From: Candidatus Poribacteria bacterium
GTDB taxonomy: Bacteria > Poribacteria > WGA-4E > WGA-3G
Assembly (NCBI GenBank): GCA_022828145.1
Contig: JAJEJA010000121.1
Location: forward strand, 1,968-65,967
Reading direction: 5' to 3'
Length of the DNA stretch: 64,000 nucleotides
The translations under genes and the position numbers were made by a program. Under the pieces are notes generated by a model. It was not told the origin of the DNA, did no database searches, and was given only the letters and a program-made list of their open reading frames with translations. Each line of letters opens with the position of its first letter. Position 1 is the stretch's first letter. Of this stretch, positions 8,179-34,974 are shown piece after piece.

Positions 8179-8330
8179 AAAATCTATCTCCTCCTAATGC
8201 GCTTGCATGCTGTAAAGTCTTTTTGTATGTATATTTGCTAACTGGAATTTTTCAAAAAGGTATGATTGATTTCTTAATTCTAACACTGTTTCATAATGTC
8301 AACAAGTATATATTAACCTAAGTTGTCACC

Positions 8331-8472
8331 CTAGTGGATAGTCCAGACTAAACTTGTGGGTATAAGTAATAGTCGGGAATCGGAGTTCCCTCCTACCAAT
8401 AGTAGTCCATCGGTAGGAGCGATCTCCGAATCGCGACCTTTACCCGAAGAATTAGAATGGACTATCTACTAG
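8331..8472. repeat. 142-bp palindromic MITE-like intergenic element, copy A. Terminal inverted repeats are ctagtggatagtcc / ggactatctactag, with internal inverted sub-repeats.
   Basis: The reverse complement of this element recurs at 48169-48293, and a rearranged degenerate copy lies at 13475-13545. TIRs and internal hairpin arms are visible directly. Confidence 0.6.
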
Positions 8473-8698
8473 TACAGCAATTTGGATTATAGGGTGTGTA
8501 AAGATTTTGTCACTATAAGTGTCAGTTTAAAAGGAATTACACCCATGCGTCTAACTCGGTAGGTGCGGTTTCCTAACAGCACTGATTATGATTACTGAGG
8601 TACAAAGATGGAAATGGTAACTGAAAGTGGAATATGGTTAATCCAATGTGTTCACGCAGCCATGCTGCCGTTGTAGGCACAGCATATAGATTACACTG

Positions 8699-9901: not shown

Positions 9902-9965
9902 ATTCTATCACAAAACGAAATAATATGTATCAATAGTTCTAAATGCCACTATATCAACAAGCATG

Positions 9966-10082
9966 TTATTCTTCAGGAGCGGCGAGTGTATTTCCAAATG
10001 ATGCGGCAAGAAGTGCCAAATCTAAAATGTCAACGGTGCCATCCCTGCTAACATCTTCGGACAAGTATGTGTACGCGCAAGG
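9966..10082 (-). pseudogene. In-frame dockerin-repeat fragment (..SEDVSRDGTVDILDLALLAASFGNTLAAPEE*) lying directly after the tandem TAG-TAG stops of the metalloprotease gene. Likely a displaced or duplicated 3' gene end.
   Basis: Manual minus-strand translation of 10082..9966 gives a complete dockerin Ca-binding repeat in the same frame as the upstream CDS. It is separated from that CDS only by two consecutive TAG codons (10083-10088). Confidence 0.5.
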
Positions 10083-10085
10083 CTA

Positions 10086-11489: not shown

Positions 11490-11672
11490 TTGATTATCCT
11501 TTTTCTATGATAGGTTTATGGTTAAATCTAAAATACTTAGAACTTACGCATCCCTCTTAAAGTCCACCTGATAAAGGGGATTTAGAGGCTAAACAACTGA
11601 AATAGTGACTTTTTTGATGAAATATATTGCTTTTGGACATAATTTGCGTCTGTCCTGACACTAATACGATCT

Positions 11673-13181
11673 TCATTTTCTGTTTTGTGAGTTATTGCGG
11701 CGAGATGGGTGTTTATCTTCAATAAATTGTTCCATCTGTTTCGCAAGTTCGGGATCCTTTTCTTTAAGCCGCTGTAAGCCTTCTTTAGGCCCGTATCGTT
11801 CAATCATTTCATAAGCGCGGACTGTACGCTCTGGTTCAAACAAGGCATCGTCGTTCTTAAGGTGTGCCGTGAATTCCTTGGAAAGAAAGTCATTGAAATC
11901 AACAGAGTCCTCCGCGTTCATGATACTTTCCGCCCATTTGAGGAATTCTTCAAGCTCCTGCTGTGAGCCAGCTTGCTGTCGTAGAAATTCTGCCTGCTGT
12001 CGTTGGAATTCTGCACGTGCGGCTTCAGTGCGTTCAACTTTTCGACGTTCCTTGTCTGTCAGTTGATTTTCCGATGTGTGGTGTTCCTTGGATGGAAATT
12101 CCGATAGCCAAGGAGTTTCTTCTGGCACCGGTGGCGACGTTTCACCATGTGGTACTGTTCCGTTATCCAATGGTGTCACATCGGCTTCTGGTATTGGAGA
12201 AGATGTGCGCGAAATCGGTGCATACAAGGGATTGCTCAATTCAATCGCGCGTTTGTGTAGTTCAACGAGGTTTCCGTTCTGTATCGTTTGCTGCTTTCTA
12301 TAGTAAAGCCAAGCGGTTTTGAGGTCACCAAGTCGTTCATACGCCAACCCTAAACTAAAAAGTCCGCGTGTAGTGTCGAGGTTGTTTACCTTCTTTAGGT
12401 GTTGAATTGCCTCCTCCGGATCGTCGTAATGCAGTCGGTATCCTAATGCATTGAGGGCACGGAGGTCATTAGGATATTTCGCGACAATATTGCGGTATCC
12501 TGCAGCTGCTACCGCGTCATCCGGTTCTGCGCTTAGCAGTACCACTTGGGCATCAGGATTGTTTGGATCCCTTGCAAGAACACGCATCGCGTAGGTTTCT
12601 TTCTCTTTCCAACGCACCCTCACTTGATAGAGGTAGTCAATAGCACGGCGAGGTTCCAGTTCGTCTAAAATGAGAGGGTTGTAAATTTGATATGTTTCAA
12701 GGAAGATGACAGCATCCTCTGGGGTCATACCGCCGACGAGAATGTCATATCTTCTTTTGTGTGCTGCTTCAGTTACAACTTTTTCATCATCCCGTATTTC
12801 ATACATTGTTCCTGCGATAACCATTTCCCGATATATCTGATCGAGGCGCGATTGAATATTTACTGGGAGAAGTGGCGGTGGTGGAATAGCACTTGTACTA
12901 GGGAGAATAGGTCCTATATTCTTCAGTACACGGTTTGGGCGGGCATTGGTCTTGGGACGTACGCGTTTGATTTTTGGCGGCGGAGCGTGCGGTGTTTCTA
13001 CGTGCATGTGCTCTCCCGGTGGAGGTAGTTTTGCAGTGTTGTGGGTGTCTGTATTTGGTGCTTCTTGTGTGGCGTCCAAGGTTAGTCTATCGTAAACAAG
13101 AACCCCGATGCAAAGTAGTACGAGCGCGCCAAATGTACCGAGTAAAGAAGATTTCCAATAGTCTTTTACGAAAGCGATCAT
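11673..13181 (-). CDS. Membrane-anchored hypothetical protein with a proline-rich segment, TPR-like repeats and a charged coiled-coil C-terminus
   Basis: One N-terminal TM helix (LLGTFGALVLLCIGVLVY), PPP-rich linker, TPR-like AL.ALGYRLHY / LGLAYERLGDLKTAWLYY segments, and a K/E/R-rich tail. Confidence 0.55.
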   Translation of the reverse strand: MIAFVKDYWKSSLLGTFGALVLLCIGVLVYDRLTLDATQEAPNTDTHNTAKLPPPGEHMHVETPHAPPPKIKRVRPKTNARPNRVLKNIGPILPSTSAIPPPPLLPVNIQSRLDQIYREMVIAGTMYEIRDDEKVVTEAAHKRRYDILVGGMTPEDAVIFLETYQIYNPLILDELEPRRAIDYLYQVRVRWKEKETYAMRVLARDPNNPDAQVVLLSAEPDDAVAAAGYRNIVAKYPNDLRALNALGYRLHYDDPEEAIQHLKKVNNLDTTRGLFSLGLAYERLGDLKTAWLYYRKQQTIQNGNLVELHKRAIELSNPLYAPISRTSSPIPEADVTPLDNGTVPHGETSPPVPEETPWLSEFPSKEHHTSENQLTDKERRKVERTEAARAEFQRQQAEFLRQQAGSQQELEEFLKWAESIMNAEDSVDFNDFLSKEFTAHLKNDDALFEPERTVRAYEMIERYGPKEGLQRLKEKDPELAKQMEQFIEDKHPSRRNNSQNRK

Positions 13182-20171: not shown

Positions 20172-20951
20172 CTATTCGTATTCCCATTCTTCGCTAGCAT
20201 CTTCATAATCGGGATTTACCGCAATAAGCATGTCAAGCGTATACTCAGGATCAGCATCGTTGCATGCTGTCTCAGGATTTTCCATCTCCGTAGGTTGCTT
20301 CGCATACCATAAAATATCAGCATCGTTGCATGCTGTCTCAGGATTACTATCAGGCAAAGACAATCTATATCCCCATTCTTCGCTAGCATCTTCATAATCG
20401 GGATTTACCGCAATAAGCATATCAAGCGTATACTCGGCTTCGTCACGCGTAAGTTCTTCTTTCATATTAAATTCCTCCCCACATTTCTCAATGAGGTCGC
20501 TAATGAAATCCATCAATGGGGCTAAGAAGTGGTTTTCGTTTTTACCAATAACACCAATTAACTTGTCCAATGATGCAACAAGTCGCTGATGATCATCCGC
20601 TGTCAATGAAGTTAAGAGTTGATCTTCAGTGACACCAGCTAACGAGTCAATGGCTGCTAAAAGCAATTGGGGAAATCCATCCGCTTTGCGAATTGACAAC
20701 ATTGAATTAGGATTATCAAGCTTAGGTGGTGCCTGTTTTCGGGATCTATGCCCTCTGAATCCACTAACACTTTCGCCTACATTTCCAAATTCATAAACGT
20801 TCTCATGTGTCGGTACATGTGGTGTAAGTGGTATCTTGTGCAACAGATCACCTCCAAAAGGCGCTCTGTTTGTCCTCTCAGAGACACTTATAAATTCATT
20901 TGTAGCTGCCATCAGCGAACTATATTTAACGTATTGTCTTTCGTCTAACAT
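20172..20951 (-). CDS. Hypothetical acidic protein containing a very recent internal tandem duplication of about 190 bp
   Basis: DNA 20181-20250 and 20371-20440 are about 97% identical. 20253-20281 and 20316-20344 are also duplicated. The protein repeats EYTLDMLIAVNPDYEDASEEW and PETACNDAD. Confidence 0.5.
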   Translation of the reverse strand: MLDERQYVKYSSLMAATNEFISVSERTNRAPFGGDLLHKIPLTPHVPTHENVYEFGNVGESVSGFRGHRSRKQAPPKLDNPNSMLSIRKADGFPQLLLAAIDSLAGVTEDQLLTSLTADDHQRLVASLDKLIGVIGKNENHFLAPLMDFISDLIEKCGEEFNMKEELTRDEAEYTLDMLIAVNPDYEDASEEWGYRLSLPDSNPETACNDADILWYAKQPTEMENPETACNDADPEYTLDMLIAVNPDYEDASEEWEYE

Positions 20952-21815
20952 AATTTTCTCTTAAATTTCTACATATTTCGCAAAAATATTTTTGAAGTCT
21001 ATAAGTTAAACAGCGTATCATTAACAATTACGATCTACTGTAACGTAAAACTAACGATGAGGATAACAAGTTACTGCATTCGTGCCAAGAAAATCTGTAA
21101 AAACCACAAGTTTACAGTCAATTATTCTATGAAATATAAAATTGTATCAATATTATACCACGTAACAATTCTGTGTGTCAAGAAAAAGCACAAAAACTAG
21201 ATCTATTGTATTAAAGTTGCTCTCCAACTAAGGATATTATACCATGCGAAAATATCAATGTCAAGAAAAAATCATAACCTATTATATCTCCTTGCACTGG
21301 GATGTAAGTTGGATTGTAATGAGTTGCTGCTACCACACTTCATGACCTACTGCTGGTCCGGTGTCTATTTCACCTGAAGCTGCATGCTCAGGTTCCTGTG
21401 CTAACAGGTCCGCGAGTTTCAAACGCGGAAGATCGGCGGGACGACCTATTTTTTTAAGTCGATGCGGTTTGAGAACAGCATCTGCTAAACTCTTGTCTGT
21501 ATCTAAAGTTTCCATTTCTGTTTTTCACGTTAGAGTCCTCCTTAATCATAAACACTAAACATAAGTCTCAGAAAATGTAAACTTATTGGTTCATGTATAA
21601 TTTAAGTGCGAATATTGTTGAGTTGTGTTATTATTTATTGTATGGATTTCCCTATGCTATCTTTATCTTTAATTGAACGATCCCGCGTATAAATATCAAG
21701 TTTGTTAATGTTGAGTTTATATCAAAACTCGTCTATCGCACTTAATCATAACATGAGTCTTTCAAATTTAATATAGATCTTACAACATCATTTGTAAGAA
21801 TTAAAGGAGCAATCA

Positions 21816-22073
21816 ATGGACAACACAACAATGCGAAACGCAAATACACAGTTAGCAATTGAATTACTAAAACAAACTGTCCTCAATGTTTTACAAGAAT
21901 CAGAAGAACAAGGACAACCATTACTTTCACCTTCGGAAATTTCAAAACAACTTGATATTACCCAAGCTAACGATAACGGTATATCTCGTGCTGTCCTCTC
22001 ATTGCTACGAGACGAAAAACTTGTTGAATGCGTGCTAAGTAGTAATAGAACAAAATATAAGATCCGCAATTGA
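21816..22073 (+). CDS. Small (85 aa) hypothetical protein, possibly a winged-helix DNA-binding regulator. It is divergent from the defense-like operon.
   Basis: AGGAG RBS 6-8 nt upstream of the ATG. An HTH-like SPSEISKQLDITQANDNGISRAVLSLLRDEKLVE segment. No family assignment is possible by eye. Confidence 0.3.
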   Translation: MDNTTMRNANTQLAIELLKQTVLNVLQESEEQGQPLLSPSEISKQLDITQANDNGISRAVLSLLRDEKLVECVLSSNRTKYKIRN

Positions 22074-22214
22074 CGAGGAGACATGAAAGCAGTTGAAAGA
22101 CATTAACATTGAACACATTTCTATAGACAGAATATTACCTAATGTTGAAAATCGCTGAAATCGCTGAATGTGCGGATAAGTGAGTAGTTCTGTGTACAGC
22201 CATCGGAGTCCCGA

Positions 22215-25022
22215 CTATTCTTCCTCAAAACCTTGAGTAGTAAACTTCAAGGTTTTACAATTCTCCGACACAATAACAACTACATTTTCTGGCACACCAT
22301 CCGGCACATTGGCTTGAATATCCATCGTTATTTCAACTTTTGCCCCTGTGAGACTGGTAAGATGCTTCACTACTTCGTCTATAACATTTTGAGCATCTCT
22401 GGCTGCTCGTATCGGATCAAGAGTAACGGATCCGTAAAAACGTTTCGGGGGGACAGTCTGAGTAGGATCGGTTCCAGTTTTATCCTCTGTTTCACCTTTT
22501 GGATCAGTAGAACCTTGATCGCGTTGACCTTTGACAGGGTCTTTTATACCTTGTTCATCTCTTGATTCATCAGTTGCTTGTTCTGTTTCAAGTTGTGCTG
22601 CTGCCACGGCTGGCTTTATCAACACACTTGCTTCATTGATATATATAGAACTACTGACTCTACCGAATTGCAACCCCTTATATTTACCATCGTCGCCAAC
22701 GCTATCTGCGTATCCGAACCATTCCGTTGTTTTGAGTCCCTCTCTGACAGTATTGAGCAGAACACCAGAATCACGTAGACGCGGCATATACAGATACGTC
22801 GCAAGACAATCCCACACGCGCTTGAGACTCACATGAGGTTCGTCTTCTTTCCATAGCCAACGATCCAGTTCCATTTTTAGTAGTGCCGGGGACCATTTGG
22901 TAATTAACTGCTCATCACTTCGGACTTTCTTTACGGCTTTGGTTACCGGATTCTCCTCAGCACCGGAAATGCGGACAATTTCCCATTCTACTGGGTCTGT
23001 GCCTTCTTGTGTTGGCACAAGCAGCCATCTATATGCATCGTTGAGGCGCATACCAACGGTTTCGTTGCACTGATTTTTTCCTTCAGTCGCCTCGCGCCGT
23101 TGATTAGCATCAAGGTTCAGTGCCTCTGAGTCTTGGACAATTGAATCCCACGCGAGGTAGCGACGTGTTTCCTTATCAAGCGATTCCCATTCACCATCAT
23201 CGAGTGCAACGAAGATAAGCATGTTGCTGTAGGTTCTTGGACTATCACCGCGTTTGCTTAAAACCTCTGTTGCAGCTCTGATTGCCTCTGAACTTTGCTG
23301 TCTTGTTTTATGTCCACTTGCAGGTGATAGAATTACCAATCTTGTTTCTGATTCATCTGGCACGTCGGTTGATGTAGGGCAAATGTGGACAGCTTTGAAA
23401 TCGCCTCGGTCTCGGACCTGTCGTAAGCGACGGACAATTTCCGCTTCTACTCTCTCAGGTTCTAATTTTGCAGCGCGATCATCCATTGTTCTGCGCAGGT
23501 TAGGATGTGTGTCATACCAGTATCGTTGGGCACGGGAGTAAAGGTGTGTTAGTCTATTTTCCATGTGTTTTTTGGCATCTATAAACACAGAGACAGACTC
23601 ATCGGGGTGTGCAACGCCGAGGTTTATTCGTATCTCCTCAATACCGCGAACATTCTGATCGCTCCCATGCGGTGCGCTGCCCATGAAGATTGCCCGAGCA
23701 ACGTTTTGTGCTGCAGCGTGTTTGCCAAAACGGGTGTTTCCTGCGTCAATTGCGCGTGTTTCGGAATTTGGTCCATCAACGTCTTTGTCTACAACAGCGT
23801 TCCACCCATCAGCGAGATAACGAAGCAATTCTTCTCGAACATTCCGAGCATTTAATGGAATTGAACCCGGTAAAATCAGCCCTGAACGATCATTGTTCGC
23901 CCATAAGTGATGAATAACTGCTGCCATGAGACGCAAGACACCTCGGGTTTTCTGAAAAGTATCAAGCGGTGACCAGTCGTCATAGAGTCTGTCAAAGAGT
24001 TCCGGGTGTATCGGGTACGCTTGACGGAGTCTATCAAGATAAGTTGTTTCGCTGCATTCAGAGGGAAAATCGGAAGGATTGTCATCGTATAACTTGACAA
24101 ATGCCCGACATACCGCATCGCGTGCGGATGTGTCTTTCACTTGTGAGAAAAGTCGTCGTCTAACAATCTCAAATCCTTCGTTAGCACCAACAGGTCTCCA
24201 TATATTTTCAAGTCTTCCGACAATCGCTTCAATTCGCACTAACGCTGCTTGTCCTGCATCGCCTCCGATTTCAATATCAGACTCCGGTATTGATGCGATG
24301 AGTTGGCTACGATCCGAACGTTTGACAGCTTCCGTTAAGGACTGCACAAAAGTTAAATTAGAGTCAAATGTACCCGCAGGCAGGTCGTTATCAACGTAGA
24401 TGTTGCGCGCATAAGCCACCAACTCATCAATGAGGATGACAGCAGGCCCAAATTGGTTGAGAAGTGTCGTTAAATCGTTAGCACCGGGGGCAACGCTTTT
24501 CTCATCCGCCTCTTTTACAATCGCATAACCCTCTTGTCCACCGAGTTGTGCAGCGATATCACCCCAAAGCGTCCGGACATTAACGCCATTGACATCCCGT
24601 GTCACGGTCGGATTGAGATCTGTTCCGACAATAACAGCAATCCGTGCATCAGGTACTTCACTCACCTGTGCTGCACTGAGGATGTGTTCTACCCCTTCCA
24701 TCTGGTCTGGAGTCACCTTTCCACTGAGAAGGTGATACAACGCCAGCATGCTATGCGTTTTACCTCCACCAAACGCTGTTTTGAGCTGGATGATCGGTTC
24801 TCCGCCGTTGCCTGCTAACCGCTCAACTGCGGAGGTAAGGAGTTGTCCCATGCCATCCGTTAAGTAGGTGCGTTCAAAAAATTCTATCGGGTCTTGATAT
24901 TCCGTGTCAGCTGTCCCGGCGACGACCTCTGCCAAGTTAACAGCAAACTCGGCATTATCGTAACGGTCTTCGGCGACGTCTGGATGTGGGGTAACAACTT
25001 CTCTCCAAGGTTTTAGTGCCAC
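22215..25022 (-). CDS. Large P-loop ATPase of the DUF499-like family (defense-island associated)
   Basis: Walker A FGGGKTHSM near the N-terminus. A 935-aa architecture with no other recognisable catalytic motifs. It is located immediately downstream of a DUF1156 methyltransferase and an SNF2 helicase in the same orientation. Confidence 0.65.
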   Translation of the reverse strand: MALKPWREVVTPHPDVAEDRYDNAEFAVNLAEVVAGTADTEYQDPIEFFERTYLTDGMGQLLTSAVERLAGNGGEPIIQLKTAFGGGKTHSMLALYHLLSGKVTPDQMEGVEHILSAAQVSEVPDARIAVIVGTDLNPTVTRDVNGVNVRTLWGDIAAQLGGQEGYAIVKEADEKSVAPGANDLTTLLNQFGPAVILIDELVAYARNIYVDNDLPAGTFDSNLTFVQSLTEAVKRSDRSQLIASIPESDIEIGGDAGQAALVRIEAIVGRLENIWRPVGANEGFEIVRRRLFSQVKDTSARDAVCRAFVKLYDDNPSDFPSECSETTYLDRLRQAYPIHPELFDRLYDDWSPLDTFQKTRGVLRLMAAVIHHLWANNDRSGLILPGSIPLNARNVREELLRYLADGWNAVVDKDVDGPNSETRAIDAGNTRFGKHAAAQNVARAIFMGSAPHGSDQNVRGIEEIRINLGVAHPDESVSVFIDAKKHMENRLTHLYSRAQRYWYDTHPNLRRTMDDRAAKLEPERVEAEIVRRLRQVRDRGDFKAVHICPTSTDVPDESETRLVILSPASGHKTRQQSSEAIRAATEVLSKRGDSPRTYSNMLIFVALDDGEWESLDKETRRYLAWDSIVQDSEALNLDANQRREATEGKNQCNETVGMRLNDAYRWLLVPTQEGTDPVEWEIVRISGAEENPVTKAVKKVRSDEQLITKWSPALLKMELDRWLWKEDEPHVSLKRVWDCLATYLYMPRLRDSGVLLNTVREGLKTTEWFGYADSVGDDGKYKGLQFGRVSSSIYINEASVLIKPAVAAAQLETEQATDESRDEQGIKDPVKGQRDQGSTDPKGETEDKTGTDPTQTVPPKRFYGSVTLDPIRAARDAQNVIDEVVKHLTSLTGAKVEITMDIQANVPDGVPENVVVIVSENCKTLKFTTQGFEEE

Positions 25023-25067
25023 AGTATACCTCCAATTCCAAGTTCTCTTAAAGTAACTTATTTCATT

Positions 25068-27842
25068 TCAAGATTCCGCAGGTAACAGTTCTTGTTGTTC
25101 AGGCAGCTCAGTTATATCCTTACGTTCCGCCTGAATATTTGCCCATGAGGTGACGAGTGTGTTATAAGGAATCGCCTCTTGTGCCCACCCATTACGGTCA
25201 CAGATGGCGTATAGCCGGTAAGCTAAATCACGTGCATTTTCACTCTGTTCACTCCCCAGTTGAAACACTAACCTTGCCGTTTCGGTTTCACCACCCTGGT
25301 CAAGCGCGCGAATTAGGTATTGTGTGCATTTCCATGTATTGAGATCACTATCCGAAGCTGGAGCCCATTCATCTGGATACTCGTTCCGGTTTAGCAAACG
25401 GACTCTTCCAGCGCGGGCATAGAGAACGCCAGATTCTGATATACCTTCTACGCTCGTGTCCCTGGCACGAGCAAGTACATCAGCTTCACCATAACCCGCT
25501 TCTCCCATACCGTACTGTTCAAACCATGAAACACAGAAACGGGTATCTGCATCAAGATCACCGTCCTGTTCGGTGAAATACGCATCAAGTTCTGTGTTGA
25601 TGATTTGCAGTGCAGTGCGGACTTGCATCGGAGTCCCGCATGCTTCAAGGACACTACTGTAACGTGAGAAGATTGCCATACCGGGACCTATTGATGCCTG
25701 TGTTAGGTCAACAGGAGCAATATTTCCTTGCTGTAAGTGTCGGAGTGCAGTTGGGAGTTTACTCCGAAGCTCGGAAATAAATTCACGGCGGGTTGTCACA
25801 CTTGCATCATCGGGGCGCGGGCGGCATACGAGGACAATTGAAGATGCAAGAGCATTAGTATCCATGGCCACTTGACGAGTTTGTGCTTCTGTCCGGATTG
25901 GTAGCGTCCCCGTAATATGAAAACCGGCTTCAAGCAATCCTTCAAGCATTGTCTCCCATCCTGTTGAAGAAATACCTCCATCTTTATTATCTTTTTCAGA
26001 TTGTTTAAAAGCATAGTAGACAGTCATCGGATACTCAGGATGAGCGTGAGTTCGCATGAGATAAAAGGCTTTACTTAAACCTGTCAAGAAGTGTTCTTCT
26101 GCTTTTGACCTATTTCCACCAAAGCGATGAGGATCGGCGACAAGTTCTTCAGTTTTAGGTACGAGCATTAGGTTAAACAAGTTAGGGTAGATATGTCTTA
26201 AACTTCGGCGTAACCAAATGTAAAAGAAGTCCGATAAGTCTGCGTAGCTAACGTTATTGTAGTAAGGTGGGTCTGTGGAAATGAGAAAATGATTGCTTTC
26301 CACATGTATTGAAGCTGCATCTGATTGATTTGTAAAACCAATCTGACCATTGCCTAAGAATGGTAGAGGATCAATCGCGAGCTCTATAGCTCCGGACAGA
26401 TTCCCCGTTGCAGATCCAAAAACATTAGCATCTGCAAAGTCCCATATCATTGCTAAAGATTGTTTTCCAAAAGCTGGCTGTACTTTTTGACCTTTTGAAT
26501 TCCACCTTGCGAATGTATTACAAGTCATTGCTACTCTGTCAATTGCGAATGCTAGATATGTCAATATGGCACCAGCATAAGTTTCTAATTCTTCACAATT
26601 TGCTTTGCTTGCATCTGCTACGACTTGTACTTTCACTTCGTCCAACAAATCGGTAAAGGTAGACAGAGCAGTCAACTGTCGTTGCGTAAACAGATCTGCC
26701 CAGGTAAAAAAACCATACCCCCGACCACTGACTAAAGTTGTCGTATCACGGTTCATTTCGACTTCCGGTGTCCAAGCAGGCTTGGCAGATTCTGCAATTT
26801 TTACGTGGTCTTCCGAGGGAGAAAGATAAATTCGTCCATTTTCTCCGTCAGCAACAATTGCCATCAGTTGTGCATCTATGTGACCTGCGATACTTTCATT
26901 TTTGACGTGTTCTTCGGGGTTATCTTGATGACACACAAGGCAACGGAAACGAGCACCTCTTCCTATTTTCGTAGGTTCAGGAGGCGCACCTTCCCCCATT
27001 TTTACCTTAAATTGTACTTCCTTACTTGCTTTATTCACCAACGGTTCGATCCATGCTTTTTTTCCTTTTTTCTTTGATAGCCAAAAAGAGGTGACAAGTG
27101 GCATCCTGGCCCCACAAACAGGATTATGACATTTCACCCTCCGTGCCCAAATCCATGCAATGACAGTTGCTTCACCGCCACCCTGTTCCTTCGGAACTTT
27201 CACTTTCGGGTAGAGATGTCCGATCCTCTCTTCTGCTTCGTTCCGCATCCACTCTCCGTAATAACGGATGTCTTCCGCCAAACCTGAGGCACCATTCCAG
27301 GTCTGGTTCTGCAGTGAGTTATTTGGCACTTCAGGATTGACTGGAGGTCGTCCTGCAAATTGCTTAGGAATTTCGATCATTGCTTTGGTGATTAACACAG
27401 CAATAGGATTTAGATCGCTAGCATGTACTTCTAAACCAAGACGTTGTGCTTCCAGTGGAATAGATCCAGCACCACAGAATGGATCTAACACTGGTGGCGG
27501 ATTCCCATTTGTTGACTTGAGAATCTCGTTCCGCGCCTCTGATAGAAGATGTTCATTGTCAGTATTTTCCCACTTAATTATTTGTTCAATAATACGGAAA
27601 AGTCGTTTCCTTTCACGATTCTGTTCTAATTCGGTTGGAAATTTGTCAGGGTGACTTGAAGGGTCATCAACAAGCGAAGCGAATAGTATTGCCCGACATG
27701 CTTTCAATGGTCGCCGTGCCCACCAGAGGTGCAGCGTGGTGGGGTGTCCACGGGCAGGACGACCAGATTTCTCGCGTACTGCTTCGCTGTTGATGTCTTC
27801 TAATGGTAATGCTACTTCAATGAGTTTTTTGTGGTCGGACAT
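25068..27842 (-). CDS. DUF1156-family DNA methyltransferase (N6-adenine / N4-cytosine type, DPPY motif) with Zn-ribbon
   Basis: N-terminal hallmark GHPTTLHLWWARRP. SAM-binding DPFCGAGSIP. Catalytic DPPYYNNVSY. Cys clusters (CHNPVCG...CLVCHQD). Confidence 0.85.
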   Translation of the reverse strand: MSDHKKLIEVALPLEDINSEAVREKSGRPARGHPTTLHLWWARRPLKACRAILFASLVDDPSSHPDKFPTELEQNRERKRLFRIIEQIIKWENTDNEHLLSEARNEILKSTNGNPPPVLDPFCGAGSIPLEAQRLGLEVHASDLNPIAVLITKAMIEIPKQFAGRPPVNPEVPNNSLQNQTWNGASGLAEDIRYYGEWMRNEAEERIGHLYPKVKVPKEQGGGEATVIAWIWARRVKCHNPVCGARMPLVTSFWLSKKKGKKAWIEPLVNKASKEVQFKVKMGEGAPPEPTKIGRGARFRCLVCHQDNPEEHVKNESIAGHIDAQLMAIVADGENGRIYLSPSEDHVKIAESAKPAWTPEVEMNRDTTTLVSGRGYGFFTWADLFTQRQLTALSTFTDLLDEVKVQVVADASKANCEELETYAGAILTYLAFAIDRVAMTCNTFARWNSKGQKVQPAFGKQSLAMIWDFADANVFGSATGNLSGAIELAIDPLPFLGNGQIGFTNQSDAASIHVESNHFLISTDPPYYNNVSYADLSDFFYIWLRRSLRHIYPNLFNLMLVPKTEELVADPHRFGGNRSKAEEHFLTGLSKAFYLMRTHAHPEYPMTVYYAFKQSEKDNKDGGISSTGWETMLEGLLEAGFHITGTLPIRTEAQTRQVAMDTNALASSIVLVCRPRPDDASVTTRREFISELRSKLPTALRHLQQGNIAPVDLTQASIGPGMAIFSRYSSVLEACGTPMQVRTALQIINTELDAYFTEQDGDLDADTRFCVSWFEQYGMGEAGYGEADVLARARDTSVEGISESGVLYARAGRVRLLNRNEYPDEWAPASDSDLNTWKCTQYLIRALDQGGETETARLVFQLGSEQSENARDLAYRLYAICDRNGWAQEAIPYNTLVTSWANIQAERKDITELPEQQELLPAES

Positions 27843-27931
27843 GGTGTTTCCTTTGTTTATTTTGGCATATCATAACATAAAAGCGGGAATTGTGAAAGTA
27901 ACGTTTATTTTTGCAACAAGCAGTATAAAAA

Positions 27932-28699
27932 TTATTTAGATTCAGATGGAAACCTTGAACAGACATTACGGATATAAGTATCATAAAACTCTAAATGTTC
28001 TTTTTTAAAACCTCTGTCGGTAAATTCATAATAAGAGCAGGATACAACATAAAATAAAAATACATTTAAAAGTCCTGCAGCAATTTGCCCACGATACTCA
28101 TCTTTATGCTTGCCATGTTTATCAAAACTCCAATATGAATACATCAGAATATTTCCATGGACATGTTCATTACGATAATTAAACATTCTATTTAATCCAT
28201 CATTGGAAATGTTATTATTTAGTTGCTTGTTTATCCCCTGATCTATCTTTTCCTTTCTTGATTTTCCAGACCAAAAATCTCTACCTGGCTTTCCATATTC
28301 CTTTTTAAAATCCTCTTCCATTTGTTTACGGATTTCTTTTTCACTATTTGCAATATCCAGAAAAGCGGAATATCTGTCTGTTACAGATTCGTTAGACTCA
28401 AGAATATAGAAATAATCTATTGTGCAGTCCCAAAGCAGTCTTGCTGAATATTCTATTGAACGAGAAAAATAATGGCTTTCATCATTAAGCAAGGATTCTG
28501 CTAAAACACATATATCATAAGAAGCCTCCCTGGCATCCATGAATAATTTCCGCAATGCAAGTTGTCTATCGCTAACAGGACCAGAAAGCTTGGTTAATTT
28601 AATAGTTTCATCCACTTTTAGAATTAACTTTTTACTATATTTCAATAATTCTTGCAAATCAGAATCAGATAAATTTTTAGCGACATCCTTTCTATACAT
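27932..28699 (-). CDS. AT-rich (about 30% GC) hypothetical gene inserted between the methyltransferase and the helicase. Unknown function, possibly an accessory defense or abortive-infection component.
   Basis: A 255-aa ORF, K/N/Y-rich, with compositional contrast to its neighbours (about 50% GC). No recognisable motifs. Confidence 0.5.
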   Translation of the reverse strand: MYRKDVAKNLSDSDLQELLKYSKKLILKVDETIKLTKLSGPVSDRQLALRKLFMDAREASYDICVLAESLLNDESHYFSRSIEYSARLLWDCTIDYFYILESNESVTDRYSAFLDIANSEKEIRKQMEEDFKKEYGKPGRDFWSGKSRKEKIDQGINKQLNNNISNDGLNRMFNYRNEHVHGNILMYSYWSFDKHGKHKDEYRGQIAAGLLNVFLFYVVSCSYYEFTDRGFKKEHLEFYDTYIRNVCSRFPSESK

Positions 28700-28779
28700 A
28701 TCTTCTCAATCCTGAGTAAATTGAAACTTTATTCAATATTACATGCCTTTTGTTGTCTAAGTTTAGTATGTTTTAATAC

Positions 28780-31700
28780 CTAACTTGGTGTCTCTGAACG
28801 CGCAAGGAGTTCGTTGATATCGTAATTGACGCTATTTGCGCCGAAGTCCGGTTCTTTTTGAAACGGCTCACGGATATAGCGCGGTTCTTTCGCTGTATCG
28901 CCCTCTACTTCAACGATAGCAAGAATAAAACTCTCCGGTTTGTTGAAAGCAGTGAAAATCTGTGTTTTAGAAACGGTAACGTTTGTCGATCCAGGTGATT
29001 TCCCTTTTACTTCAATGAACAGTAGACTGTTATTATTTGGATCTTTTGACTCAATATCATAGCCTGGGTTATGATGTGGCATCTCTATTGGTCCCCGTCC
29101 AAGTTTCTGTTCCGCTTCCATTACTGCAGCGACTGCAAGTTTATCAATCCTTTCTCGGTCTGCTTGTGCAATCAGAACCGTACTGTCAGTGTTGCTTTCG
29201 GTGGTCTCCAAAAGCGTTTGCGGTACGATGAGTGTGCCCCCAATGACATTTGGTGCCATCGGGGACATATGCTGTTCCTGATCTAATTCTTCCATACGTT
29301 TTCCAAGCCGTTCCTCCAACTCGTTGGCACGCCTTTGTGCTTGGTCTGCGTTGATTTTTGCCATCGGTTTTCCGGCTTCTTCCTGGCGTTTCAAATGGCT
29401 TGCCCGATTATCCCAGTAAATAATTTCCTTCGTGAGTCGTTCATGAACCGCTCGTCTTGTTTTCTCCACCAATTCATCTTTATGCTTCTTTACTTCGTCA
29501 AGGTGTTGTGGAATAAGGTGTTCTGCCGCATAGGCAATAATCCGAGATTCTAATTCCTCACCGTTCTGTAGCCATTCTGCTTCGCGTAATGTAGATACCT
29601 GTGATTGTTCTTCATCAGTGATTGATCGATAATCCAAGTAGGGGGCATATCCGGGTGTTTTTACCGTTCCATCCATATAGATTTCTACGAACTGCATCTG
29701 ACGTGAAACTGTTAGTCTATTTCCATCTTTAAGAGTTCGTCCATCTTGGATTGCATGTTCAAGGTAGAAGAGGACACGAATCTGATCATCAGTTGCATTT
29801 GGATCAACCAAAACCGTTCCCTGTTTAAGCAGTGGACGGTGTTGTTCCAGGACTAAATCAAGTGTTGCATCAAGCAGTGAATGACCGGGACAGACAAATT
29901 CTGCCAAAGGTTTCCCCGGAACAGTAATATGATCTTTTTCAAAGGTAATACGTTCATACTGTTTTAGGACTGGTGTACCGACACCAATTGCAACGTCTCG
30001 TTTACGGATTATCGCGGGAACGTTGCGAATTTGATAACGTTTAGACTCGCGTTCACGCAGTGTTCCACCGAGTTGTGTGAACGCTTCTCGGAAGAACGAA
30101 GCGATAAAGTGTGGTTGCAAACGTTTCGCTTCTGCACGCTCCATATCTTCACGGATATCATTGAGACGGCTGGTATCAATTGTTCCATGAACCAAACTAT
30201 TTTCTCTGATTAAGCCTTGGATATGATCGTGGTCTAATGCCCCGTCAATTACTTCCGTTAATCGTGCTTTAACTTTCGGGTCGTCTCCTTCTCGGATAGC
30301 TCGAATGAGAAGTCTCCTCAGCGGTTCATCGGTAAAACATTTCCCTAACACATCAAAAACAGCACCCCCTAAGGAGCTGCGCTGTTGATTAAGTTTGTGA
30401 AGTAAGGTGTTGAACACTTCTCCCTCTCGCGTTTTTGGTGCAACGAGATTCCAGAGATGACACACCTCAGTCTGCCCGATTCTGTGAATCCTCCCGAACC
30501 TTTGTTCAATGCGGTTTGGGTTCCATGGTAGGTCATAGTTTACCATCAAGTGTGCCCGTTGAAGGTTTATACCCTCGCCAGCAGCATCGGTAGCGATTAG
30601 GATTTGCACATTCGGGTCCTGTGTAAATGCTTCTTGTGCTTCTTGACGTTTTTTCCGTTGCATACTGCCATAAATCGTGACAACGGCTTCGGGACGACCT
30701 ATCAACGTATGAATTTTATCAGTTAGATATTGAAGTGTATCGCGATGTTCAGTGAAGATAATAAGTTTACGACGGTGCCCTTCTGCGTTAAATAATTTGC
30801 CAGATTCAGAGGCATTACCTTCTTTTTGTAAGAGATTAGATAGTTCTTCCCATTTTTTGTCGGTATTACTATTACGGACCTCTTGTGCTAATTTTTCTAA
30901 ACGGGCAAGTGTCTGTATCTCCGCTTCAAGTTCAGAGATTGTTCGGGCAGCTGATGCTTGTGCTATGACTTCTTCCTCTATTGATTCTACTTCTTCAGCA
31001 GTCGCCTCATCATAAAAGTTGTCTACCTCCTCTGAGTCTGTTGGCGCATCACTGTCTATTGGTGTATCTAAGCGGATTGAAGTATCAGATCTGTTATTTT
31101 TTTCTTCCAGTAGTCTATCCTCTAATCGTTCCCTGCGGCGTTGAATAGATCGGTAGATTGCCTCTGGCGATGAAGCTAAGCGTCGTTGTAAGATAGTGAG
31201 AGCAAATCCGACTCGGTTTCCGCGTTGCCCTTCAATATTATCAGCACGGTTCATCTCTTCACGGACATAATTGGTAACCTCTTCATATAGATGTGCTTCT
31301 AATTCAGAGAGCTCGTAGTTGAGAGTTGAGGCGTAACGTTCTGGGAATAAACGCGTTCCATCAAATTTTAGCAGATCCTCTTTAACCATTCGGCGCATCA
31401 GATCGGAGGTGTCCACAGGGTTAACACCCCCTCGAAAACGTCCCTCAAATCGATCAGCATCCAGTAACGCCATGAACAGTTGGAAATCTTCTTCTTTACC
31501 ATTATGGGGTGTGGCAGTTAACAATAAAAAGTGGCGTGTGATTTTCCCGAGCAGTTGTCCGAGTCGGTAACGTTTCGTAGCATGTACGTCCCCTCCAAAA
31601 AAGGAAGCTGACATCTTGTGTGCTTCATCACAAACGATAATGTCCCAATCTGTGTGCTTTAACTTTTCTTGAATATCATCGTTTCGGCTGAGTTGATCAA

Positions 31701-32316
31701 GTCGGCAGATAAATAAGTTATGTTCTTGGAATGGATTTCCTGTACGTGAGCTGTTAATTCTTTCACGGGTAAGGATTTCAAAAGGGAGGTGGAATCGTTG
31801 GTCAAGTTCACTTTGCCATTGCTCCACAAGGCTACCAGGGCATACAATTAGGCAACGTTTTAAATCGCCCCGTACGAGAAGTTCCTTGAGATATAAGCCT
31901 GTCATAATCGTTTTGCCTGCTCCCGGATCATCAGCAAGCAGATAGCGTAAGGGTTGACGCGGTAGCATTTCTTCATAGACTGCGGTAATCTGATGTGGCA
32001 ATGGGTCTACGCTTGACGTATGGACTGCAAGCCGTATATCAAAGAGATGTGCCAATTGGATTCGGTAAGCCTCAGACGCGAGGCGGAACATTTCTCCGTC
32101 TCCATCAAAACTCCACGGAAGTCCGGCAGTAACAATTTCAAGTGAGGATTCGCTGGCTCGGTAAATCAACTCACTGCCAAGCGTGCCATCCGCTTTTTTA
32201 TAGGTAAGTTCTATTCCAATTGTACCTAACCATTTCACTGCAACGACAGTTACCTGTTGGTTAGGTAATATTCCTTTTACGATACAACCTTGTTTAAGTT
32301 CTTCTAAGTGCGCCAA
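28780..32316 (-). CDS. SNF2/DEAD-like superfamily-2 helicase (1178 aa) with an N-terminal extension and a C-terminal DUF3883-like domain
   Basis: Motif I LLADDPGAGKT. Motif II DEAH (IVCDEAHKM). Motifs V/VI ILIATDAAGEGINLQ / NPNRIEQRFGRIHRIGQ. The C-terminal about 120 aa (FIEVKGKS...ILAIVEV) is typical of DUF3883 helicase tails. Confidence 0.85.
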   Translation of the reverse strand: MAHLEELKQGCIVKGILPNQQVTVVAVKWLGTIGIELTYKKADGTLGSELIYRASESSLEIVTAGLPWSFDGDGEMFRLASEAYRIQLAHLFDIRLAVHTSSVDPLPHQITAVYEEMLPRQPLRYLLADDPGAGKTIMTGLYLKELLVRGDLKRCLIVCPGSLVEQWQSELDQRFHLPFEILTRERINSSRTGNPFQEHNLFICRLDQLSRNDDIQEKLKHTDWDIIVCDEAHKMSASFFGGDVHATKRYRLGQLLGKITRHFLLLTATPHNGKEEDFQLFMALLDADRFEGRFRGGVNPVDTSDLMRRMVKEDLLKFDGTRLFPERYASTLNYELSELEAHLYEEVTNYVREEMNRADNIEGQRGNRVGFALTILQRRLASSPEAIYRSIQRRRERLEDRLLEEKNNRSDTSIRLDTPIDSDAPTDSEEVDNFYDEATAEEVESIEEEVIAQASAARTISELEAEIQTLARLEKLAQEVRNSNTDKKWEELSNLLQKEGNASESGKLFNAEGHRRKLIIFTEHRDTLQYLTDKIHTLIGRPEAVVTIYGSMQRKKRQEAQEAFTQDPNVQILIATDAAGEGINLQRAHLMVNYDLPWNPNRIEQRFGRIHRIGQTEVCHLWNLVAPKTREGEVFNTLLHKLNQQRSSLGGAVFDVLGKCFTDEPLRRLLIRAIREGDDPKVKARLTEVIDGALDHDHIQGLIRENSLVHGTIDTSRLNDIREDMERAEAKRLQPHFIASFFREAFTQLGGTLRERESKRYQIRNVPAIIRKRDVAIGVGTPVLKQYERITFEKDHITVPGKPLAEFVCPGHSLLDATLDLVLEQHRPLLKQGTVLVDPNATDDQIRVLFYLEHAIQDGRTLKDGNRLTVSRQMQFVEIYMDGTVKTPGYAPYLDYRSITDEEQSQVSTLREAEWLQNGEELESRIIAYAAEHLIPQHLDEVKKHKDELVEKTRRAVHERLTKEIIYWDNRASHLKRQEEAGKPMAKINADQAQRRANELEERLGKRMEELDQEQHMSPMAPNVIGGTLIVPQTLLETTESNTDSTVLIAQADRERIDKLAVAAVMEAEQKLGRGPIEMPHHNPGYDIESKDPNNNSLLFIEVKGKSPGSTNVTVSKTQIFTAFNKPESFILAIVEVEGDTAKEPRYIREPFQKEPDFGANSVNYDINELLARSETPS

Positions 32317-32722
32317 GTGATTTTCCTTCTATGCTAATTCTTGTATATGTTTAGAGTCTTATGTTGACTATATTACCACATTTTAAAGTGAAAAGTCAAG
32401 TTGAGATGGTCAAAAGCCATAGGCATTCAGTTTTCGGTTTTTGAGCATTTTTGCAGAGGTCTCGCGAGCACGGGGAAATTGAAGAAACACCCAAGCAAAA
32501 CCCTCGTTCCTACAGCGAAGAAACCTAAAGCAGAAAAATGAAAGTATTGGAGAATTGAATTCCCTGCTTGCCTTGGCTTGAGGAGGTCACTGGCAAAATT
32601 GTGGCAAGTCTGTTATTATGTAATCGAGTGTTATATCGAACTTTCAGCAAACTTATCCGCACCGAAAAAATGGGTGTGAAACAGGTTTGAAAAAGAACAC
32701 ATTCTGATGAATCAGCGATATC

Positions 32723-34243
32723 ATGGAGGAACTAACTATGGCTATAGGTATTTTCCTACACTATCCCAATGCCGGTTATCTTGAAGAAGCACGAAACGTT
32801 CTGAATGGACTTAAGTTAGACATTCAGGAAATCAAAGCAGATTATGAAACTGTTTCAAACCTTGTTCCTTACACCTTACAACGTGGTGCTGAGTCTTGGT
32901 TGATACTTTTCGCCCCTGATTACCAACGAGATTTACTGATTTTACCTTTTCCTGATAAATCTTCAGAAGTGCAAGAAGGGTTTCTGGGATCTATTATTGA
33001 GGAACTGCCAAGGGTAATTGACATGTTTTTATCTCGAAACTTTAGATTTTCTTTGGACTGGAATAGACGATTTCAGTACGTTCACATTGATGTCTCCGTT
33101 TATTCCTTGCTAAATTCCAGAAGGGGACAGCAGCAAGATCGGCAGACTCCCCAACAAATCGTTCATTTTTGTCAGGCAACAAGTCAAAACATTCAAACAG
33201 AGCGTAATAAAGCGTGGCGTAGGGCACAAGAGAAAGGAAATCCCATTGTTCTTGATCAATTTGACAAGGTGCTGGAAACAGCAAATCATAAAATCTTCGA
33301 ACGCATAATTGCTCAAGGATCTAAAAAAGTCGTGCCAGAAATCGTTAATATTTTTGAGGATATTATGGATCCTGAAACAAAGCGTTTCTTAATCACAACT
33401 GAAACAGTAAGTGCCTTTGTAGATAAACACCTACCTCCTAATTTTGACTATTCTGCGCCGGGATGTGGTCTTTGGAAAGCTGTAGAACGCGAACTGAATC
33501 TTTCACTCGTGTTGCATTTGCGTAGGGAGGCTGGGGTAGTGAAGAATGTTTATTACCCGTGGAAGGGAAGTAAACAAGGAAAAATTCCAATTTTAACAGG
33601 GGAAAACCGCAGCGTAGATCTCAATAAAGATTCAAAAAATCCCGATAGTATTATGCTTGGTCCTATGACAAGTTTGCTTGAATGGGGACATTGTAATACC
33701 GTCAGAGAGAAATTGGAAAATCTTTTTTTCGCTTTCGACTTCGACTTTGACTTTCTACTACAGTATCTTCTTGGTCAACACGCTGGTGCAGGTGGGAGTG
33801 CGAAAAAAGATACCCTCCCTGAGTTTTTGGATAAAATAAGAAAATTAAGAAACGGTCATGCCCACATATCAGCTATGTCCCGGCAAGAATTTGGGACACT
33901 TCGTAATCTTGTTCTTGCTTCAAAGCACGGGGCAACAAGTTCATGCTTGCATGGAATTCTCCTGTTGAAAGCACTTGTGCTTTTATATTGGGGACAATCT
34001 GATTTTCCTACTAAGATAACAACTGAAGATAAACAAGTCGTAGAGTTTAAGAACTACAATAATACGTTTACCCGCGGCGATGGATCAAACTGGAAACTTG
34101 TCGCGATACATGGAGATGGTTCTGAGCTCTGCATCGCTACATTTGACACAAAAGACGATGCAGAAGCCGTCCGTAAAGAACTTGATAAAGCCGCTGGTAC
34201 TGAAAAAGAATGGGATGTCAATAGGTTCAAAGAGAAAATGTAA
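32723..34243 (+). CDS. Hypothetical 506-aa protein, divergent from the helicase operon. The C-terminal region has a possible HEPN-like Rx5H motif (RKLRNGHAH).
   Basis: ORF with a FDFDFDF segment and RKLRNGHAHIS. The HEPN assignment is speculative and rests on motif spacing only. Confidence 0.5.
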   Translation: MEELTMAIGIFLHYPNAGYLEEARNVLNGLKLDIQEIKADYETVSNLVPYTLQRGAESWLILFAPDYQRDLLILPFPDKSSEVQEGFLGSIIEELPRVIDMFLSRNFRFSLDWNRRFQYVHIDVSVYSLLNSRRGQQQDRQTPQQIVHFCQATSQNIQTERNKAWRRAQEKGNPIVLDQFDKVLETANHKIFERIIAQGSKKVVPEIVNIFEDIMDPETKRFLITTETVSAFVDKHLPPNFDYSAPGCGLWKAVERELNLSLVLHLRREAGVVKNVYYPWKGSKQGKIPILTGENRSVDLNKDSKNPDSIMLGPMTSLLEWGHCNTVREKLENLFFAFDFDFDFLLQYLLGQHAGAGGSAKKDTLPEFLDKIRKLRNGHAHISAMSRQEFGTLRNLVLASKHGATSSCLHGILLLKALVLLYWGQSDFPTKITTEDKQVVEFKNYNNTFTRGDGSNWKLVAIHGDGSELCIATFDTKDDAEAVRKELDKAAGTEKEWDVNRFKEKM

Positions 34244-34418: not shown

Positions 34419-34796
34419 TTAATTGCGATAGGTTTGGATGCGCGGTTTTGGAGTGCCAACCATAGGTGGCAAATTCCATGTTGTTTGCATAGAGTATTTT
34501 CCTTCTTGTTGGGCATAGCGCAACACCGAGCCGATCCGTGTGCGGTGGTGTTCCAGTTCTTCCGGTGTTGTGACAACGATGTCCTTCGCTACAGGTAAAT
34601 CAGCCAAGGCTACGCGGATGTCAACAGCCGTATTCCGCTTATCCTTATCTGTGAGCTCCTCAAAAACGATAAGCAAATCTATGGCACTATGCCGATCAGC
34701 ATCCCCTCGTGCTTGTGAACCGAAGAGAATAATCTGAAGCGGGTCAAATTCACGGACTATACGCTCTGTCATGATTGAGATAAAATTGTTATTCAT
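34419..34796 (-). CDS. Minimal nucleotidyltransferase (MNT, Pol-beta superfamily; MntA/AbiEi-like antitoxin-type). The longest ORF extends to 34895, but the likely start is M at 34796 or 34772.
   Basis: GS-x9-D-x-D signature: ILFGSQARGDADRHSAIDLLIVF. No HEPN partner ORF is found downstream on the same strand. Confidence 0.7.
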   Translation of the reverse strand: MNNNFISIMTERIVREFDPLQIILFGSQARGDADRHSAIDLLIVFEELTDKDKRNTAVDIRVALADLPVAKDIVVTTPEELEHHRTRIGSVLRYAQQEGKYSMQTTWNLPPMVGTPKPRIQTYRN

Positions 34797-34856
34797 TAAC
34801 AGGGGGTTTGAAAACAGTGGGGTTTGAAAAATTGGGTTGGATAGAAGCGTATACCC

Positions 34857-34891
34857 TATCAAAATCATGACGAATACGCGTTTGGTATTCG
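34857..34891. promoter_or_regulatory. Perfect 13-bp inverted repeat (tcatgacgaatac-N7-gtattcgtcatga) upstream of the MNT gene. Candidate autoregulatory operator.
   Basis: Palindrome read directly. The position is 5' of the MNT start on the minus strand. Confidence 0.4.
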
Positions 34892-34974
34892 TCATGATTT
34901 TGCGGGTGTTACTTCAATCTACCCGACCTATAAGGTAAGAGTAGACTATCTATGAATGTGATCAACAGATTCAA

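Follow-up and report, generated by a model that had tools for sequence, protein, structure and literature searches.

Why should a gene with the composition of a foreign element lie in the middle of a compact defence operon, and what could it be doing there? The question is raised by X255, a gene for a protein of 255 amino acids in a stretch of 64,000 nucleotides from Candidatus Poribacteria (assembly GCA_022828145.1, contig JAJEJA010000121.1, positions 1,968 to 65,967), referred to here as the window. X255 lies between the helicase and the DNA methyltransferase genes of an Hma operon, a site already known as an insertion hotspot for defence genes. The reading preferred here, to which we give a probability of about 0.6, treats X255 as a mobile gene, functional and stand-alone, which is carried as cargo in the known slot between hmaA and hmaB and codes for an autonomous conflict or immunity protein. 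The part of this reading that concerns its position, namely that X255 is mobile cargo at a known hotspot and no core subunit of Hma, is well supported. The gene and its immediate neighbours are as follows:

27932-28699, minus strand: X255, an intact gene for an all-alpha protein of 255 amino acids, placed in a divergent, AT-rich branch of the DUF5677 family

28780-32316, minus strand: hmaA, an SNF2 helicase with a C-terminal NOV_C (PD-(D/E)XK) nuclease (Pfam SNF2-rel_dom, Helicase_C and NOV_C)

25068-27842, minus strand: hmaB, a DUF1156 N6-adenine DNA methyltransferase (Pfam DUF1156 and MethyltransfD12)

22215-25022, minus strand: hmaC, a DUF499 AAA+ ATPase (Pfam DUF499)

With a guanine-cytosine (GC) content of 0.315, and of 0.238 at third codon positions (GC3), X255 has the lowest value among the 35 open reading frames (ORFs) of at least 150 amino acids in the window (0.427 +/- 0.028 in the others, z = -3.95), and it coincides with the GC minimum of all 768-bp windows in the 64 kb, 0.08% of which are equally low. 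The surroundings have values of 0.445 (the helicase gene hmaA), 0.454 (the methylase gene hmaB), 0.474 (the ATPase gene hmaC) and 0.421 (the whole window). An initial annotation of this DNA had described a low-GC ORF of 255 amino acids between a methyltransferase and a helicase gene, on the same strand as its neighbours and with spacers of 80-90 bp on each side. All of this agrees with the measurements, the two spacers, both AT-rich, being 80 bp (28700-28779) and 89 bp (27843-27931) long, while the GC content of about 50% that it gave for the neighbouring genes was too high.

The same annotation had called the ORF an orphan, a description that has to be abandoned. A search of 5.8 billion proteins returned 50 homologues, 39-81% identical over the aligned part, and in an alignment of 42 members the 41 others are full-length and 44-82% identical to the window protein. 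This alignment has a mean column identity of 62% and 28 invariant residues, which include N177-E178-x-x-H181-G-N183, and the window copy carries every residue that is invariant in the family. The family is very small, its profile giving 23 matches at E <= 1e-3 against 1.84 billion cluster representatives. Four copies could be traced to named genome assemblies, each of them a metagenome-assembled genome (MAG) of Candidatus Poribacteria, and no relatives were found in the JGI metagenome scan, in the IMG/VR scan or, by tblastn, in GenBank phages and PLSDB plasmids.

That the ORF is not a real gene, but was opened by chance in an AT-rich spacer or is what remains of a gene in decay, is hardly credible. 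A homologue that is a pseudogene does exist in locus L005 (10001-10750), where the reading frame is interrupted by a stop near codon 155, and the gene is thus dispensable in at least one genome. The AT-richness itself gives little support to a chance frame, as AT-rich sequence is expected to contain few long ORFs, and the idea is refuted by the conservation pattern. Besides the homologues and invariant residues described above, the ratio of nonsynonymous to synonymous substitution rates (dN/dS) is 0.18 between X255 and its orthologue in L003, a Candidatus Poribacteria MAG used as reference both for dN/dS and for the alignment of the island, and AlphaFold2 models the protein as a confident all-alpha bundle (predicted local distance difference test, pLDDT, 85.8; predicted template modelling score, pTM, 0.86). 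The value for X255 indicates purifying selection, although the gene evolves faster than the hma genes, whose dN/dS values are 0.09-0.12. The frameshifted state that the initial annotation had considered as the sign of a remnant is likewise absent, the reading frame of X255 being intact.

To which family, then, does the protein belong? The statement that no motif is recognizable stands insofar as no curated model is matched above its threshold, but the 28 invariant residues and a remote kinship to DUF5677 (PF18928) go beyond it. DUF5677, whose gathering threshold is 27.1 bits, is matched below that threshold by 33 of the 42 members over about 150 of the 166 model positions, with a best score of 26.6 bits within the X255 clade (P0009); the window protein itself has no DUF5677 match in the Pfam scan. 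A sister subfamily, that of P0060, exceeds the threshold with 28.0 bits and also carries a precomputed PF18928 annotation, and its profile (A3) is aligned by hhalign with the X255 profile (A1) at 98.5% probability (E = 2.1e-15, 202 columns). Because of these sub-threshold matches, and of the sister subfamily which both passes the threshold and matches the X255 profile, X255 can be called a divergent, remotely related DUF5677-like protein. Both share a similar length and an all-alpha prediction, and DUF5677 is also reported beside site-specific recombinases on mobile DNA. On the other hand, the window protein does not match the model, and DUF5677 has no assigned function, so that membership gives no mechanism.

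The initial annotation had proposed remote-homology searches, including Foldseek with an AlphaFold model. Foldseek found no PDB neighbour: the X255 model against PDB and BFVD, and the model of the sister subfamily against PDB, returned generic helical bundles with TM values of at most 0.37, none of them at E <= 0.001. Sequence searches of PDB with the single X255 sequence and with two profiles also gave nothing meaningful. A membrane protein was considered and set aside, the hydrophobic helix at about residues 206-224 being borderline in hydropathy, with Kyte-Doolittle values of just 1.0-2.1 among the homologues, and lying inside the compact model; a soluble protein is the more likely of the two, to judge from this model.

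The operon in which X255 resides is assigned to the Hma systems, also called Type-1 BREX-related (bacteriophage exclusion-related), because its products have full-length matches to the PADLOC models and the matching Pfam domains. The HmaA model scores 1668.6 bits over residues 1-1177, with Pfam NOV_C at residues 1058-1147, and the HmaB and HmaC models are matched over their full length with about 1133 and 1168 bits, respectively. The gene order is also that of Hma, with a helicase-NOV_C fusion followed downstream, on the same strand, by a DUF1156 methylase and a DUF499 ATPase. An Rx4-6H motif is absent from the first 150 residues of the hmaC product, for which Pfam returned no HEPN match either, and the protein appears to be without the N-terminal HEPN fusion common in many Type-1 BREX-related systems. 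Hma was defined as a three-gene operon (PMC8565338) in which HmaA, the known effector, protects alone against phage T4 by means of its NOV_C nickase (PMC11232893), and the system has since been reclassified as Type-1 BREX-related and restriction-modification (R-M)-like (PMC12839542; 10.1101/2025.10.09.681413).

Whether X255 belongs to this system or merely travels in it can be approached by comparing Hma operons. In distant metagenomic operons (HmaA 50-56% identical) there is no gene between hmaA and hmaB: the two genes overlap by 4 bp in L027 and L028, and in L030 hmaB starts 14 bp past the hmaA stop. Among closer relatives the slot is filled, with a content that varies. The comparison with L003 defines two further features:

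22202-32330, minus strand: Hma island shared with L003, with 91-94% nucleotide identity in blastn and no alignment in the flanks beyond

28722-28778, minus strand: variable junction, 57 AT-rich bp directly after the hmaA stop, where the blastn alignment with L003 breaks

This junction is the sole break in the alignment. It is replaced in L003 by 2214 bp (7765-9978) unrelated to the window sequence, which encode a pair of proteins of a cyclic oligonucleotide-based antiphage signalling system (CBASS), namely a CD-NTase and an HNH-SAVED effector as identified by Pfam. The CBASS of the related operons is type I-like, consists of a CD-NTase of 325 amino acids and an HNH-SAVED protein of 385-398 amino acids, and is located between the hmaA stop and X255. 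In L021 the order is hmaA-CBASS-X255-hmaB-hmaC, with the CBASS at 3899-6053 and identities to the window proteins of 81% (HmaA), 73% (X255), 66% (HmaB) and 75% (HmaC). In L022, a contig truncated at its 5' end, the end of a SAVED gene (1-870) lies directly upstream of X255-hmaB-hmaC. CBASS and X255 thus share the slot in two complete related operons and probably in a third one, that of L022. The reverse situation is found in L031 (JGI Ga0209754_1000463, 10001-12393), where a fragment of 64 amino acids from the 3' end of hmaA (78% identical) is followed by a CBASS pair whose proteins are 81% and 90% identical to those of L003, and X255, hmaB and hmaC are absent. L031 may represent either a CBASS cassette that moved together with a piece of hmaA or a decayed Hma locus. 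Since it has CBASS without X255, the two are separable cargo modules. An ancillary gene of CBASS was accordingly rejected as an identity for X255: the window has X255 without CBASS, L031 has the opposite, and at least ten other contexts of X255 are free of CBASS.

The comparison of orthologous DUF1156 operons had been proposed in the initial annotation, which took the gene for an accessory insertion and not a core component, and it bears this out: the slot is empty in L027, L028 and L030, CBASS is present or absent in it, and homologues of X255 occur outside Hma. The opposite pattern, with the gene conserved across many unrelated operons, was not seen, as the distant Hma operons have no such gene. 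The same absence, together with the published three-gene definition and the restriction of the assembled copies to Poribacteria MAGs, led to the rejection of X255 as a core component of Hma. The insertion behaviour is itself a published one. Liu et al. (2024; PMC11232893) reported insertions in about 66.5% of hma systems and recognized the region as a hotspot into which defence genes, among them those of Septu, PARIS and Ppl, are inserted, and auxiliary or backup effectors have been found embedded in the DUF499-centred Type-1 BREX-related loci (PMC12839542). X255 resembles this cargo in its operon and in its site between the SNF2-NOV_C helicase and DUF1156 methylase genes, in the varying content of the slot, in its foreign composition, and in its independent occurrence outside Hma. 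It differs from it in two ways: the published cargo consists of recognized systems (Septu, PARIS, Ppl, AAA_21 pairs, GmrSD-like, HEPN, Schlafen) and X255 matches no defence model, and in the X255 clade the slot is additionally followed by a conserved promoter-like element of hmaB. Other insertions were seen in Hma operons along the way, namely an ORF of 387 amino acids and low GC (0.42 against 0.57) after hmaA in L026 (5250-6413) and an ORF of 279 amino acids between hmaB and hmaC in L029 (13247-14086), both consistent with the published behaviour of the hotspot.

The initial annotation had further proposed that the gene was recently captured, and here the evidence points the other way. X255 holds the slot in operon variants whose core proteins are 66-81% identical, and at 73% it has diverged in step with them. 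Moreover, the family gene lies 6-13.5 GC points below its surroundings in 18 of 18 loci. Since all these loci are low, including those with copies that have diverged together with the operon, a recent arrival cannot be read from the GC content, which is rather a stable, equilibrium trait of the whole family.

A long stay in one operon is also what would be expected of a fourth Hma component specific to this clade, such as a regulator, or a specificity or sensor partner of HmaB or HmaC, comparable to DUF3780. In favour of such a component, X255 is found in the identical position, directly upstream of hmaB, in four of four operon variants, its divergence (73-82%) follows that of the core genes (66-96%), it is under purifying selection, and it is kept in the window despite the absence of CBASS. 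These observations have to be set against homologues at 45-55% identity in at least ten contexts without any hma gene, against the distant operons in which hmaA and hmaB leave no room for it, and against a composition that is foreign to the operon in every locus, with hmaB keeping a promoter-like element of its own. The likeness to DUF3780 is one of arrangement, the latter being a small extra gene in the DUF499 ATPase-DUF1156 methylase-helicase operon of Type-2 BREX-related systems (DUF499/DUF1156/PLD-helicase). The host of X255 is Type-1 (NOV_C) and not Type-2, X255 is mobile and occurs also outside such operons, and none of the 42 members has a DUF3780 match in Pfam at E <= 1, for which reason a DUF3780 analogue was rejected. 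A fourth component is considered unlikely.

The preferred reading of X255 as mobile cargo finds its counterpart in the loci without hma genes (L004-L007, L009-L014, L016-L018, L024 and L025). The homologues with at most 55% identity are located outside Hma, often with a DNA methylase next to them: the neighbour is a methyltransferase-HNH fusion in L004 and L006, a type III R-M system in the case of the interrupted copy of L005, and a type ISP-like methyltransferase in L010-L012, while in L009 an N6_N4 methyltransferase is found nearby, followed by an integrase, and L020 also has an N6_N4 methyltransferase. These neighbourhoods, together with hmaB, could point to a generic partner of DNA methyltransferases, acting as a methylation-linked restriction, sensor or control factor. 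By raw count, uncorrected for the base rate, 8 of 12 distinct contexts have a methyltransferase gene at a distance of about 2.5 kb or less, and the ISP-like enzymes of L010 and L011 are 59% identical while their X255 neighbours are 54% identical, which is compatible with a long linkage. However, the methyltransferases are of unrelated classes (HmaB, methyltransferase-HNH, type III Mod, ISP-like and N6_N4) and stand in every orientation and order, and none is near the gene in L007, L014, L016-L018 and L024. The homologue of L007 is 79% identical to that of L011, yet has an integrase beside it in place of the methyltransferase. Defence islands of sponge symbionts are, besides, known to be rich in R-M genes. 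A generic partner of methyltransferases seems quite improbable.

The integrase of L007 belongs to a second kind of neighbourhood. In this locus (8001-9517) the homologue overlaps by 4 bp the gene for a tyrosine recombinase of 246 amino acids, and L013 (310-1334) has a truncated recombinase, a remnant of 78 amino acids whose first 47 residues are 83% identical to the recombinase of L007. This linkage echoes the one reported for DUF5677 and serine recombinases in Bacillota, where DUF5677 genes are enriched and co-transcribed beside the recombinase. Other contigs with homologues carry genes for Rep3, ParA, D5 primase, NrS1-like primase, transposase, integrase, ThsB-TIR and DruA. X255 might, then, serve the mobile element itself and have become stranded in the hma slot; it could be an accessory of the recombinase, act in maintenance or addiction, or counter host defences. 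Many copies share their contig with genes for Rep3, ParA, a primase, an integrase or a transposase, which speaks for this, as does a distant DUF5677 ORF, tested in Enterococcus faecalis, which was not among the five of nine ORFs reported to protect from phage. It fits poorly with the stable retention of X255, under purifying selection, in a defence operon with no adjoining recombinase, with the lack of homologues in phage and plasmid reference collections or IMG/VR, and with the lack of a conserved partner or antitoxin-like gene. No partner gene is common to the contexts of X255, the small downstream ORFs being unrelated except for the recombinase and its remnant, and a toxin-antitoxin module was rejected on the same ground. 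A role in the service of the mobile element is regarded as rather doubtful. The clade-specific Hma component, the methyltransferase partner and the factor of the mobile element are nonetheless the alternatives that carry real weight.

How would a cargo gene in the middle of an operon be expressed, and how would the genes behind it? The two spacers around X255 contain the following features:

28700-28721, minus strand: X255 leader, the conserved 22 bp before the ATG (ATTTACTCAGGATTGAGAAGAT), with an AGGA/GAGAAG Shine-Dalgarno-like stretch

27843-27931, minus strand: X255-hmaB spacer, with a sigma-70-like element and the hmaB Shine-Dalgarno sequence AAAGGA

Co-linearity with L003 in blastn begins at 28721, that is, with the leader, which L003 and L022 share unchanged and L021 has in a slightly diverged form. 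The element in the second spacer consists of a -35 box TTCACA (27896-27891), a gap of 16 bp and an extended -10 box TG-n-TATGAT (27874-27869), and a promoter scan gives it 10 of 12 matches plus the TG. The 3' half of this spacer (ACTTTCACAATTCCCGCTTTTATGTTATGATATG ... AACAAAGGA) hardly varies among four operons, that of L021 included, although protein identities between them are no more than 66-96%, and distant Hma operons have no spacer before hmaB. No terminator-like site is present between hmaA and hmaB. From this arrangement we infer that hmaB and hmaC have a conserved extended -10 promoter of their own, which would shield the expression of the methylase from whatever fills the slot, and that transcription reading through from hmaA, or from CBASS in operons that have it, would reach X255, which would make use of its own conserved leader.

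Regarding the function of the protein, a first lead came from the window copy, which reads Y-R-N-E-H-V-H-G, with R-N-E-H-V-H inside it, and which matches HEPN_RiboL-PSP with 16.8 bits against a cut-off of 28.4 (E = 0.0068). Like the HEPN RNases, above all the stand-alone effectors embedded in R-M, BREX and BREX-related loci, X255 is a helical protein from a neighbourhood of defence or R-M genes, with an invariant asparagine and histidine spaced as in R-N-x-x-x-H. Asn177 is invariant within the clade of 42 members, and His181 also across the wider alignment, where L66, R87, Y98 and W143 are the other invariant positions and D30, R57, D62, I94, D95, K151, G155 and Y223 are nearly so. Helices 2 and 3 carry conserved Arg/Asp pairs, the protein has a W-S-G-K loop, and an E-x3-R motif (E83/R87) is present in part, R87 being invariant and E83 partly conserved. 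HEPN families that keep the histidine but not the arginine are known, such as Parep1/8 (PMC3710099).

Several results stand against a HEPN-like site. The family consensus at the motif is L-N-E-x-V-H, with leucine at position 176 in at least 90% of the members, while the arginine of the window copy is replaced by leucine or tyrosine in its closest relatives, so that a conserved Rx4-6H motif is absent from the family. The window copy is the only one of the 42 members that touches a HEPN sequence model, and does so below threshold. Foldseek with the two independent confident models retrieved no HEPN structure, nor any other PDB neighbour. A canonical HEPN RNase was therefore rejected, as the arginine of the motif is not conserved, and HEPN-like chemistry of X255 should be taken as a weak lead and not as a classification.

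The mechanism that would follow from the preferred reading, in which X255 is an autonomous cargo protein, can be outlined in these terms. The read-through transcript from hmaA, or from CBASS, would supply X255, and the protein would act alone as an additional layer of conflict or immunity, by analogy with the published hma cargo and not as a subunit of Hma. Autonomy is proposed because of this analogy with embedded cargo and because of the recurrence of the gene in R-M-rich islands and on mobile elements. As a weakly supported guess, X255 might be an effector or sensor that binds or cleaves nucleic acids, with an Arg-less, HEPN-like site around H181, and is triggered during infection. A more specific version would make the X255 clade an immune effector or sensor of a kind not recognized before, acting alone and having either a helical fold that is new or an active site derived from HEPN but lacking the arginine. 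Its range would be limited to the AT-rich mobile genes of Poribacteria living in sponges, and it would have been stably co-opted, together with CBASS, in an Hma operon split by an internal methylase promoter. This version is tentative and on the whole unlikely.

Several observations weigh against an immune function for this cargo. X255 and 16 diverse relatives have no PADLOC match, and X255 and its relatives no NCBIfam or PHROG match; in this respect X255 departs from typical hotspot cargo, as it is not a recognized defence system in these collections. The role in defence is suggested by context and analogy. The distant DUF5677 ORF of E. faecalis, as noted above, was outside the protective set. 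Finally, each of the four operons known from this clade of Hma has kept X255, which has diverged together with them, and this would also fit a clade-specific functional integration.

The island also presents some features that do not concern X255 directly. The HmaB of L022 (1772-4534) is only 67% identical to that of the window, whereas HmaC and X255 are 93% and 80% identical, which suggests a mosaic hmaB in which the methylase or its target-recognition region was replaced within an otherwise conserved operon. In L003 (13680-16488) hmaC is split into two ORFs of 503 and 423 amino acids, possibly by a frameshift, by pseudogenization or by an assembly error. Downstream of hmaC in the window, the region 20900-22200 is AT-rich (GC 0.32-0.39) and contains small ORFs only. 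The homology to L003 stops at the same place (22202), and the island may have its boundary here.

At the other end, an ORF of 506 amino acids (32723-34243, plus strand), oriented divergently to hmaA, is without matches in Pfam, PADLOC, NCBIfam and PHROG. Around residue 385 its product reads K-I-R-K-L-R-N-G-H-A-H-I-S, a HEPN-type motif of the canonical RNxxxH form. L003 lacks this ORF, which may encode a further accessory effector of the island. Upstream of the island is found as well a minimal nucleotidyltransferase gene of the MntA-like type (34419-34895, minus strand; Pfam NTP_transf_2, PADLOC PDC-S09), with no obvious HEPN partner ORF adjoining it and with a 71% identical copy upstream of hmaA in L003.

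The compositional anomaly that raised the question is explained by the tolerance of Hma operons for foreign cargo between their helicase and methylase genes. Insertion into Hma was already published, and X255 adds another example to it, this time from a little-studied phylum of sponge symbionts, without overturning current views. It does delimit a very rare and conserved family, confidently modelled in structure but with no neighbour in PDB, that recurs in R-M-rich islands and on plasmid-like elements, which makes it a reasonable candidate for defence screening. A single Hma lineage can stack Hma, CBASS and X255 in one locus, and the conserved promoter-like element after the slot, in front of hmaB and hmaC, suggests how the methylase may stay expressed regardless of what is inserted upstream.

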